Positions 40,348 through 41,771 of a DNA stretch of 64,000 nucleotides are shown one piece after another. Origin of the DNA: a virus; IMG/VR virus record IMGVR_UViG_3300029390_000003, one strand, 5' to 3'. The notes beneath the pieces are model-generated. The model saw only the letters and a program-made list of their open reading frames with translations. It was not told the DNA's origin and did not search any database. The translations under genes were made by a program, and so were the position numbers. Position 1 is the first letter of the stretch, and every line of letters starts with the position of its first letter.

Positions 40348-40424
40348 CCTATCGGGCTGGTGGGACAGGAGAGATTCGAACTCCCGACCAAGCGGTTATG
40401 AGCCGCCAGCTCTGACCAACTGAG
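40348..40424 (-). tRNA. tRNA-Met (anticodon CAT); could be a lysidine-modified tRNA-Ile instead.
   Basis: The cloverleaf was folded by hand. The acceptor stem is GGGATAG/CTGTCCC, the D-stem GCTC/GAGC, the anticodon loop CTCATAA and the T-loop TTCGAAT. CCA is encoded. Confidence 0.8.
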
Positions 40425-40661
40425 CTACTATCCCATGCAAACGCCGACTTTCGTCGGCGCGATGCCAGCGGAGGAATCGAACCTCATCTCTCGGTGTTTC
40501 CGAGCGCTTTTACCATTAAGCTATCCAGCCGTATACCTCAGAATTTAATTCTCACTATCCAAGCTACGTCGCGTTCCAATATGATCACTCTTGGCAACCA
40601 TGTCGTAACATATAGGTTCCTTTCGGCTCTGAGTAACCGGTGCAGCGTAAGGGGCTGCGTG

Positions 40662-40737
40662 TGGAGCGACTGACGGGGGACGATCCCGCAACATTCAGAT
40701 TGGAAATCTGACGCTCTGCCAATTGAACTACAGTCGC
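40662..40737 (-). tRNA. tRNA-Gly (TCC).
   Basis: The acceptor stem is GCGACTG/CAGTCGC, the anticodon stem TCAGA/TCTGA and the loop TTTCCAA. The T-loop is atypical. CCA is encoded. Confidence 0.7.
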
Positions 40738-41094
40738 ATAAGAACCAACCTAGCAACTGGCATCACTAGGCTGGGATGCTCGGCTTGCAAAGGCACGCTG
40801 CACTCTTTCGAGCGAGCCGAGAATAACGTACATGGATAATTTCGTTAGCCCCTTTCTGGGTGGTATCTTGCACAGGCGCGGCCGGATCTGACCGCTAAAG
40901 ATCCTACCCATACAAGATTGGAGCAGCGAAAGGTAGTCGAAACCTCATCCTCAGCTTGGAAGGCTGATGTACTAGCCGTTGTACGACCGCTGCATGAAAA
41001 CCCAGCTTACAAAGCACTACTGCACCATCACTGGCGAGCTGGGAATAATAGTGGTCAAAGGAGTTCAACCATGAACAACAACGATTCATGACCG

Positions 41095-41176
41095 TGGTGC
41101 GGATAGTGGGCATCGAACCCACACGCTAAAGCACCAGAACCTAAATCTGGCGTGTCTGCCATTCCACCATATCCGC
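41095..41176 (-). tRNA. tRNA-Leu (TAG), type II.
   Basis: The acceptor stem is GCGGATA/TATCCGC and the anticodon loop TTTAGGT. A long variable arm forms a hairpin. The T-arm is GTGGG-TTCGATG-CCCAC. CCA is encoded. Confidence 0.8.
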
Positions 41177-41181
41177 ATAAA

Positions 41182-41252
41182 TTGCGCCAACAGGGGTCGA
41201 ACCTGTGATGGAGGAGTCAAAGTCCTCTGCCTTACCGCTTGGCGATGGCGCA
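41182..41252 (-). tRNA. tRNA-Gln (TTG).
   Basis: It has a U1:A72 acceptor pair as in bacterial tRNA-Gln. The anticodon stem is GAGGA/TCCTC, the loop CTTTGAC, and the T-arm ACAGG-TTCGACC-CCTGT. Confidence 0.8.
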
Positions 41253-41320
41253 TCATATACCCAGCTTACTGGAGAAGCATCCTACTGCCTTACTGCTAAG
41301 GAGCTGGGAATAATAGGAAT

Positions 41321-41396
41321 TGGTCTGAGCGACAAGATTTGAACTTGCGGTCCCCTGTTCCCAAAACAGGTGCGATGCCAACTTCGCTACGCCCAG
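41321..41396 (-). tRNA. tRNA-Pro (TGG).
   Basis: It has a C1:G72 pair as in bacterial tRNA-Pro. The anticodon stem is CCTGT/ACAGG and the loop TTTGGGA. CCA is encoded. Confidence 0.8.
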
Positions 41397-41403
41397 ATAT
41401 AAA

Positions 41404-41486
41404 TGCGCCCGGCGGGACTTGAACCCGCACGCCATCTCTGGCAGAAGATCTTAAGTCTCCTGTGTCTGCGATTCCACCACGGGCGC
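41404..41486 (-). tRNA. tRNA-Leu (TAA), type II.
   Basis: The acceptor stem is GCGCCCG/CGGGCGC and the anticodon loop CTTAAGA. The variable arm forms a hairpin (GCC-AGAGAT-GGC). The T-arm is GCGGG-TTCAAGT-CCCGC. Confidence 0.75.
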
Positions 41487-41686
41487 ATATAAAAGAAGAT
41501 CAGAAACAGCCAACCATTCGTTTTACATTCTAGTTTTCTGGCGAACCGAAGAGTATTTATCCGATAGCTAGTCGGCTTACACCTTATTTCTCTTCTTGTC
41601 TGGCTTGACGTCCTTTACCGGTATGACGTCTTTCCGGTCGCCAATGTACGGCCAATCCCCGAACGAGCTAGAACAACTGATCTTCA

Positions 41687-41771
41687 TGGTAGGGATAATC
41701 GGATTTGAACCGATACGTCTTTCGACACTTGAGTTTGAATCAAGCGTGGCTGCCAATTTCACCATATCCCC
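41687..41771 (-). tRNA. tRNA-Leu (CAA), type II.
   Basis: The acceptor stem is GGGGATA/TATCCCT and the anticodon loop TTCAAAC. The variable arm forms a hairpin. The T-arm is ATCGG-TTCAAAT-CCGAT. CCA is encoded. Confidence 0.8.

Follow-up and report, generated by a model that had tools for sequence, protein, structure and literature searches.

A tRNA array beside an RNA-repair gene, with two pseudoknotted spacer RNAs, in a human-gut phage whose probable host is Faecalibacterium

The tRNA cluster of phage T4, with its repair enzymes Pnkp and Rnl1, is among the closest described counterparts of the locus analysed here, an array of tRNA genes separated by structured spacers in a stretch of 64,000 nucleotides (64 kilobases, kb; hereafter the window) of IMG/VR virus record IMGVR_UViG_3300029390_000003. 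Both are small phage tRNA operons for codons rare in the host, and five of the seven anticodon species (Gln-UUG, Leu-UAA, Gly-UCC, Pro-UGG and Ile-CAU, the last as most likely assigned below) are common to the two. Each cluster contains close tRNA pairs of which the first member lacks CCA, together with extra stable RNAs other than tRNAs, and each phage carries a kinase/phosphatase, an Rnl1-type ligase and an RlaP homologue (NrdC.11 in T4; PMC12776372). The locus differs from T4 in that kinase, phosphatase and ligase are fused in one protein of 739 amino acids (aa), whose phosphatase is of the lambda-phosphatase rather than the T4 Pnkp type and whose gene abuts the array; in that three Leu and two Gly tRNAs and no Ser, Thr or Arg tRNA are present; and in that the inferred host is a member of the Bacillota rich in guanine and cytosine (GC). 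For two of the spacer elements, termed E1 and E2 here, we know of no T4 counterpart. In T5-like phages, tRNA arrays are invaded by HNH homing endonucleases; relatives of the phage analysed here likewise show HNH insertions and mosaic tRNA content, whereas the array of the window itself is without an HNH insertion.

Two RNA-processing systems described elsewhere are relevant to the spacers. In the mascRNA/MALAT1 system, RNase P cuts at a downstream tRNA-like structure and thereby forms a 3' end. Theta ribozymes, which are hepatitis delta virus (HDV)-like, abut the 3' ends of gut-phage tRNAs (PMC10879173, Kienbeck et al. 2024). Their layout is G-P1, J1/2, P2, RCY-U-CC-NCGY-RGY, P1', GG, L4, CNAA, P2', and the phages that bear them are enriched in RNA ligase and nucleotidyltransferase genes (PMC10879173). 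The present phage resembles theta phages in carrying both of these genes and differs from them in its inferred host, which belongs to the Bacillota and not, as is mainly the case there, to the Bacteroidota.

The best explanation of the locus, held with a probability of about 0.6, is a transcription unit of about 1.6 kb that supplies rare-codon tRNAs during growth on a Faecalibacterium host, that is probably coupled to tRNA repair, and whose tRNAs are set between structured spacers. Clusters of tRNA genes are common in phages, the present one is of an ordinary kind, and a codon-compensating, repair-linked array is expected biology.

tRNA genes, codon usage and the inferred host

Eight tRNA genes were called by ARAGORN in the window, all on the minus strand between 41771 and 40358, and all eight were recovered by Rfam RF00005 at 52-67 bits (gathering score 29). 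Because these are the only tRNAs that ARAGORN called in the 64 kb, their clustering is far beyond chance. The genes are tRNA-Leu(CAA) (41687..41771; 53.1 bits), tRNA-Leu(UAA) (41403..41487; 52.0 bits), tRNA-Pro(UGG) (41321..41396; 61.5 bits), tRNA-Gln(UUG) (41182..41252; 60.4 bits), tRNA-Leu(UAG) (41095..41176; 54.2 bits), two copies of tRNA-Gly(UCC) (copy 1, 40919..40993, 55.5 bits; copy 2, 40662..40737, 59.1 bits) and an elongator tRNA with a CAU anticodon (40358..40434; 66.7 bits; labelled Met-CAT by ARAGORN). CCA is encoded in six of the eight, the exceptions being tRNA-Leu(UAA), with tRNA-Pro 6-7 nucleotides (nt) downstream, and tRNA-Gln, with tRNA-Leu(UAG) 5 nt downstream. A preliminary description of the array had listed seven tRNAs; all seven species were called by ARAGORN and Rfam with the anticodons given there, and the count was raised to eight by a second Gly(UCC) gene, which differs from the first and had been missed. 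The identity pairs pointed out in that description, C1:G72 in tRNA-Pro and U1:A72 in tRNA-Gln, were both seen in the Rfam-aligned sequences, and its view of the tRNAs as bacterial-type and apparently functional agrees with cloverleaves above the gathering threshold, 7-nt anticodon loops and U33 in all eight. The window holds the 8-tRNA form of the array; a 7-tRNA layout is the commonest among related phages (42 loci).

Codon usage of the phage was compared with that of a host sample of 52 open reading frames (ORFs; 19,743 codons, 56% GC) taken from Faecalibacterium loci near the tRNA-Leu(UAA) gene described below. When all 61 codons were ranked by phage/host ratio, CTA stood at rank 1 (4.5x), TTA at rank 5 (3.6x), TTG at rank 6 (3.5x), CAA at rank 19 (2.2x), CCA at rank 23 (1.7x), GGA at rank 24 (1.6x) and ATA at rank 40 (0.9x). 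The ratios of the seven cognate codons together gave a Mann-Whitney p of 0.012, and CTA and TTA are within the three rarest codons of the host. The earlier suggestion that the array serves a codon bias different from that of the host therefore stands, against this inferred host, for the three Leu codons, is weak for CAA, CCA and GGA, and finds nothing in ATA. The phage had also been called AT-rich, which at about 41% GC it is not in absolute terms; nor are the cognate codons preferred within the phage itself, with relative synonymous codon usage values of 0.19 for ATA, 0.41 for CTA, 0.56 for TTA and 0.57 for CAA.

The assignment of the host follows from shared RNA elements. A pattern scan for E2 returned matches in 12 Faecalibacterium genomes, one of them that of the isolate F. 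tardum. Wherever the gene is present at the locus, 5-9 nt separate E2 from the chromosomal tRNA-Leu(UAA) downstream; nine such loci were recorded (for example, 5817-5965 of locus L214). Seven phage loci have a Leu(UAA) that agrees with the host tRNA-Leu(UAA) at 83 of 84 positions, and one more has a Leu(UAA) that agrees with it at 82 of 84. A Shine-Dalgarno motif precedes 71% of the window ORFs compared with 13% in the background, which fits a Bacillota host. Taken together, these sequence features point to Faecalibacterium as the probable host. Two further E2-bearing contigs carry other taxonomic labels: a 'Collinsella' contig (L225) holds the Faecalibacterium tRNA-Leu(UAA) with E2, and a 'Peptococcaceae' metagenome-assembled genome (L224) holds an E2 and tRNA sequence of phage or Faecalibacterium type; both are probably mis-binned. 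TAG is the stop of none of 77 window ORFs with 80 aa or more and of none of 73 stop-to-stop ORFs with 100 codons or more. The triplet is nevertheless found 277 times out of frame within ORFs of the window, and in the inferred host a single one of 52 stops is TAG. Recoding of TAG finds no support, since TAG does not break up any ORF and the host, too, avoids it as a stop; the avoidance looks like a trait common to host and phage and agrees with the host assignment.

In the Rfam alignment the CAU tRNA has G1-C72, C11-G24 and the anticodon stem GGCGG/CCGCU, in which pair 29-41 is C-G. Bacterial initiator tRNA-fMet is marked by a C1xA72 mismatch, three G-C pairs (29-41, 30-40 and 31-39) and A11-U24, and the initiator identity was ruled out on these positions. 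The same last slot of the array is occupied by tRNA-Ile(UAU) in four related loci (L002, L023, L052 and L074), where the flanking spacer is the same and the D, T and acceptor arms are related to those of the CAU tRNA. The best match among 5,426 E. coli genomes was a CAT tRNA annotated in RefSeq as tRNA-Ile (81.8% over 55 nt), which carries the same GCGGCUCAUAACCGC anticodon arm; tRNA-Met was absent among the E. coli matches listed, and similar phage tRNAs are annotated in the records partly as Met and partly as Ile. Because Ile-UAU shares the slot and the best E. coli match is annotated as tRNA-Ile, the CAU tRNA, previously labelled Met with the choice between an initiator and a lysidine-modified tRNA-Ile left to its identity elements, is most likely a tRNA-Ile2 that would read AUA via lysidine.

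Structured spacers and the elements E1 and E2

The 5' end of each tRNA is preceded by 5-7 unpaired, U/A-rich nt (mostly 7) that abut a stable helix, and wherever CCA is encoded a helix begins 0-3 nt later. As modelled, this leader layout appears suited to RNase P. Two of the structured elements, E1 and E2, recur with covarying helices. No Rfam 15 family matched either of them, even with lax filters (E <= 10; 2.5 kb of the locus and the isolated elements); the scans of the 2.5 kb and of the elements returned only tRNAs and spurious microRNA-type hits.

E1 (40849..40918, minus strand) starts at the first nucleotide after CCA with helix a, of 7 base pairs (bp; 40918-40912 with 40871-40865), which encloses the overlapping helices c and d and thus an H-type pseudoknot. 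An invariant ACCA (40864-40861) and a GNRA-type hairpin (40860-40849) follow. Across 30 variants with a mean column identity of 89%, 97% of cells were paired, compared with 35-46% when the pairing was slid, and compensatory changes were seen in helices a, c and d; helix a and ACCA are present in all variants, and no equivalent of a T arm was recognised in them. E1 was found in 76 human-gut metagenome loci, all 76 of phage-like GC and none in a host-like context. It is preceded by NCCA in 74 of the 76 and lies within 3 nt of a tRNA 3' end in 70, namely that of Gly(UCC) in 39, Leu(UAG) in 22, Leu(UAA) in 8 and Leu(CAG) in 1. A candidate pairing of AUGGGUA in E1 with a downstream UAUCCAU was dropped, as it is not conserved among the variants. 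E1 is like the mascRNA/MALAT1 system in placing a 7-bp helix and ACCA directly downstream of an RNA that needs a 3' end; it is unlike it in having a pseudoknot for a body, with neither cloverleaf nor T arm, in following a tRNA, and in that its cut is only predicted.

E2 occurs three times in the 64 kb, each time on the minus strand. Copy A (41260..41318; 62.8 bits; P1 of 7 bp, P2 of 7 bp, P3 of 5 bp) ends 7 nt before tRNA-Gln, copy B (41001..41053; 79.5 bits, E = 8e-16) ends 7 nt before tRNA-Gly copy 1, and copy C (40779..40831; 64.2 bits) lies upstream of tRNA-Gly copy 2. In the model, P1 (7 bp) is followed by J1/2 (AUU), P2 (7 bp), P3 (5 bp with a tetraloop), C, P1', a 7-nt joiner and P2'; P1 is a pseudoknot that joins the 5' flank to the interior, and the element is double-pseudoknotted. 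In 45 distinct sequences, 98.6% of cells were paired compared with 32-43% in slid controls, both sides had changed in 13 of 19 pairs, and P1 was 100% paired. The pairing result was the same on a model-based alignment of host and phage sequences, in which P3 takes inserts of up to about 40 nt. Invariant nucleotides are present at the junctions.

The position of E2 is set by the tRNA that follows it. A tRNA begins 5-8 nt beyond the end of E2 in 132 of about 148 cases, and the spacing to the upstream tRNA varies from 2 to more than 60 nt while that to the downstream tRNA is fixed. The apparent exceptions have tRNA-shaped RNAs with aberrant anticodon arms downstream, which were rejected by ARAGORN. 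In Faecalibacterium the leader is variable from a conserved promoter up to E2, conservation resumes exactly at P1, and the tRNA-Leu(UAA) behind E2 is monocistronic. The host E2 may have a part in regulating or processing this tRNA, whose codon is among the rarest of the host. In eight related loci whose arrays have another architecture, E2 is followed by tRNA-shaped RNAs of 71 nt in which the acceptor, D and T arms and CCA are intact and the anticodon arm is mispaired (loops CUGAAUG or CUAACUG); ARAGORN made no call for these RNAs. They may form a class of non-decoding tRNA-like RNAs similar to a tRNA-shaped RNA of the window (40463..40529, minus strand), which is the ninth element of the array. 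The latter scored 30.0 bits (gathering 29), a marginal hit that passes the tRNA threshold nominally. Its cloverleaf is the minimum-energy fold, with a 4-bp T stem, a 5-nt anticodon loop (AAACA) and no CCA. It is maintained as a structure, since the T stem is preserved in relatives by a compensatory change from G45-C59 to A45-U59, and with its 5-nt loop it cannot decode.

A core signature of theta ribozymes was drawn from the data of PMC10879173 and was detected in the positive control and nowhere in the window or in 2.05 Mb of related loci; a looser topological descriptor fired in coding regions and was discarded. E2 shares with theta ribozymes the strand order P1-P2-P3-P1'-P2', a P1 and a P2 of 7 bp and a small size. 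It is unlike them in its P3, a covarying 5-bp stem with a tetraloop, in having no L3, P1.1/GG, P4 or G1 (the first nucleotide being C, U or G), and in being anchored to the downstream tRNA. E1 starts, as theta ribozymes do, at a tRNA 3' end, and both elements, at about 55-70 nt in gut-phage tRNA clusters, are of comparable size and setting; E1 differs in its closing helix around an H-type pseudoknot and in that the upstream tRNAs encode CCA. Membership of E1 and E2 in the canonical theta or HDV-like class was therefore rejected, the core being absent, E2 being anchored downstream and the fold of E1 being different. A similar function, cutting of the precursor, is possible for either element.

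Neighbouring genes, related phages and other features of the array

All genes of the window lie on the minus strand. Directly upstream of the array is the gene for the 739-aa polynucleotide kinase/metallophosphatase/Rnl1-Trl1-type ligase fusion (41889..44108; phrog_8238, E = 2e-226), with the domains AAA_33 (residues 6-144), Metallophos (177-355) and RNA_lig_T4_1 (460-672). The solved chains nearest to it are the CthPnkp kinase domain, lambda phosphatase and the Trl1 and T4 Rnl1 ligases, and by its modules the protein would be a complete heal-and-seal tRNA repair enzyme. Beyond it lie an integrase-like ORF of 308 aa (44180-45106, minus strand), a MazF/PemK-like endoribonuclease (45160..45579, minus strand), for which no obvious antitoxin was identified, and the RNA-repair nucleotidyltransferase RlaP (PF10127; 46773..47525, minus strand). 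The repair fusion, the MazF-like gene and RlaP share one strand and fall within 6 kb. RlaP extends damaged 3' ends of RNA by 1-2 nucleotides and has been proposed to counter ribotoxins that remove nucleotides (PMC12776372). A C5 DNA methylase (38745-40127) is encoded downstream of the array.

A sigma-70-like promoter candidate, TAGACA-18-TAGAAT (41850..41879, minus strand; 10 of 12 matches), lies upstream of the array and is overlapped by an inverted repeat with 17-bp arms (about 41870-41829; the fold of 41888-41772 has z = -3.3). The repeat (family D3) contains repeated AATATCACGATA-like boxes, at 41838-41827 and 41870-41859, and looks like either an operator for a DNA-binding regulator or the terminator of the ligase gene. 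The array is closed by an intrinsic terminator, GACGU-UGAU-ACGUC with a U-tract (40273..40296, minus strand).

Spacer S1 (41488..41686, minus strand; 199 nt) is non-coding and is closed by a long-range helix that runs from 1 nt after CCA to 7 nt before the next tRNA. S1 is dispensable: in its place relatives have a spacer of 5, about 79 or about 199 nt, or one of 0.8-1 kb that carries an HNH gene. Spacer ORFs of 36, 22 and 24 codons were dismissed, as they are without a ribosome-binding site and indels in relatives shift their frame, the 36-codon ORF of S1 being broken by an indel of 1 nt. A 13-bp hairpin (40774-40745, minus strand) follows E2 copy C and is separated by a 7-nt leader from tRNA-Gly copy 2, and an 8-bp GNRA hairpin (40441..40460, minus strand; z = -3.65) ends 6 nt before the CAU tRNA. 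The spacer between tRNA-Gly copy 2 and the CAU tRNA, of 227 nt, is invariant in length in 41 loci with very few substitutions; its first 130 nt (40661-40530 of the window) are conserved and contain no identified structure or ORF.

At least 115 IMG/VR contigs, mostly of 110-150 kb and from the human gut, encode the repair protein at 88-100% identity, and in the 80 IMG/VR loci fetched the array lies directly behind the repair gene in the same order; one contig (L008) carries an array identical to that of the window. The phage genome is about 135 kb in size and belongs to a gut phage family of more than 100 contigs. No close annotated phage relative was found, the matches being unannotated fecal contigs only. 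The anticodon set and order are fixed across the family, while each isoacceptor is represented by several unrelated tRNA scaffolds, with a median pairwise identity of 63-74% compared with 83-91% for the ligase gene. Insertions of 0.8-1.8 kb were noted in the arrays of 13 relatives. Those examined between Leu-CAA and Leu-TAA (0.8-1 kb) encode HNH-motif or zinc-finger-like proteins, which by sequence are probably homing endonucleases and could drive the exchange of tRNA cassettes. Such exchange is sufficient to explain the diversity of the tRNAs, given the HNH insertions and the near-copies of the host tRNA gene; escape from nucleases is a possible source as well.

Several tRNAs of the array and its relatives depart from the usual form. 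The T-loop of tRNA-Gly(UCC) copy 2 (40737-40662) is AUCGUCC, compared with the usual UUCRANY, with A54 and U58 swapped; AUCRUNN T-loops were also seen in several Pro, Leu-UAG and Gly variants of relatives, which suggests that deviation from the canonical T54-A58 pair is systematic. Two Leu-CAA scaffolds of relatives (for example, in L017, L019 and L020) have by eye a CCCAAAC anticodon loop with C33 rather than U33, and in 17 loci (L026 and L027 among them) tRNA-Gly copy 1 is replaced by a 74-nt 'His-ATG' call with G33. Long variable arms were found in some CAU tRNAs (92 nt; L056-L064) and some Gln tRNAs (87-90 nt; L048 and L052) of relatives.

Weighing of the explanations and meaning of the locus

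On the favoured explanation, rare-codon supply coupled to repair, the main job of the array would be to provide decoders for codons that a phage of 41% GC uses far more than a host of 56% GC, above all CUA, UUA and UUG, and the CAU tRNA would be enabled to read AUA by lysidine from host TilS. Because the array lies directly behind the heal-and-seal enzyme, with the RlaP and MazF-like genes nearby, coupling to repair is proposed, and the array would probably also keep translation running when tRNAs are cut. The precursor would consist of alternating tRNAs and compact folded spacers, with the 5-7 nt leaders serving RNase P. Since the 7-bp helix and ACCA of E1 resemble a tRNA acceptor end, RNase P is further proposed to cut at the 5' side of E1, which would release the mature CCA-3'OH of the upstream tRNA in one cut. 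Expression of the array, lysidine modification, coupling to repair and the actions of E1 and E2 are all predicted from the sequence.

A number of observations weigh against this picture. Codon compensation is partial, with ATA not enriched and CAA, CCA and GGA enriched merely 1.6-2.2x, and the strongly enriched codons ACA, AGA and TCA are served by no phage tRNA; the host codon sample is small (52 ORFs). The host assignment derives from shared RNA elements and not from a prophage or CRISPR match, the Leu(UAA) of the window itself is only 70% identical to the host gene, and no relative of the 739-aa protein, and hence no prophage carrying one, was found in 185,579 species genomes. For E1, the RNase P proposal has to do without a recognisable T-arm equivalent, and the first three nucleotides of ACCA could be engaged otherwise, by pairing of ACC with an invariant GGU (helix b, for which covariation is unavailable). 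For E2, the invariant junction nucleotides suggest a more specific function than that of a leader alone.

It can be argued, tentatively, that the array is chiefly a means of counter-defence, in which phage tRNAs replace host tRNAs cut by anticodon nucleases or by the MazF-like RNase of the phage, the diverse tRNA bodies are escape variants, and the kinase-phosphatase-ligase and RlaP mend cut RNAs. Replacement of cleaved host tRNAs, which had been raised in the preliminary description, is made plausible by the adjoining tRNA-repair genes, with the heal-and-seal enzyme, RlaP (a proposed ribotoxin antidote; PMC12776372) and the MazF-like gene all within 6 kb, and such a role has been put forward for phage tRNAs in general (PMC10264068). 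The constancy of the anticodon set and order alongside tRNA bodies far more divergent than the ligase gene, and the lack of enrichment of ATA and several other array codons, would also be accounted for. Against it, no host nuclease or cleavage site is known, the discrete scaffolds are equally explained by HNH-driven cassette exchange and capture of host tRNAs, and codon compensation accounts very well for the three Leu codons. This reading and the favoured one are compatible and not mutually exclusive.

The spacers invite explanations of their own. That E1, E2 or both are small self-cleaving ribozymes, E1 cutting after CCA and E2 at its own 5' end, with the resulting 2',3'-cyclic-phosphate (cP) and 5'-OH ends healed by the kinase-phosphatase, is doubtful. 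The nested double-pseudoknot order of E2, its 7-bp P1 and P2 and its size come near to HDV-like and theta ribozymes, E1 abuts tRNA 3' ends as these do, both elements have invariant unpaired nucleotides as catalytic cores have, and the phage holds both of the gene types in which theta phages are enriched (PMC10879173). Yet the theta core was missing from the window and its 2.05 Mb of relatives while the control was found, no Rfam ribozyme family matched even weakly, and E2 has a covarying P3 with a tetraloop or a long insert, no L3 or P1.1 and a first nucleotide other than a fixed G. E2 is moreover placed by the downstream tRNA and occurs at a monocistronic host gene, where there are no tRNAs to separate, and the tRNAs beside theta ribozymes mostly lack encoded CCA whereas those before E1 have it. 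An unlikely alternative for E2 is a regulatory role in the leader: by binding a ligand or a protein, E2 would control how far rare-codon tRNAs mature or what level they reach, and phages would have captured it along with host tRNA cassettes. Streptomyces bldA, a tRNA-Leu(UAA) under developmental control, would offer an analogy. In Faecalibacterium E2 precedes only the tRNA-Leu(UAA) gene, the reader of one of the rarest host codons, and is the sole conserved part of a leader of about 130 nt; its compact pseudoknot, invariant junctions and variable peripheral helix are typical of aptamers. This is countered by the mere 5-9 nt between E2 and the tRNA, which contain no expression platform, by the several unrelated tRNAs and tRNA-like RNAs that E2 precedes in phages, and by a context that suggests no ligand or partner.

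For the biology of the family, the analysis gives a concrete, if probable, host link to a large and abundant family of uncultivated human-gut phages, namely Faecalibacterium, a keystone gut genus. What was unexpected is the presence, in the spacers, of two covarying pseudoknotted RNAs outside both Rfam 15 and the theta signature, one of which, E2, is also found at the tRNA-Leu(UAA) gene of the host. It is a speculative possibility, with the odds against it, that E1 and E2 each represent a class of functional RNA, not described before, that is devoted to tRNA maturation. Either at least one of them would be a new self-cleaving ribozyme whose cP/5'-OH ends are healed by the kinase-phosphatase-ligase, or E1 would be an acceptor-stem mimic, the first found in nature, through which RNase P is recruited to form the CCA-3'OH of a tRNA, and E2 a leader, common to Faecalibacterium and its phages, that controls the 5' maturation of rare-codon tRNAs. 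Whether as ribozymes, RNase P guides or regulators, they would if so join the few RNA devices known to mature tRNAs, and would explain why RNA end-healing enzymes are encoded beside phage tRNA arrays.

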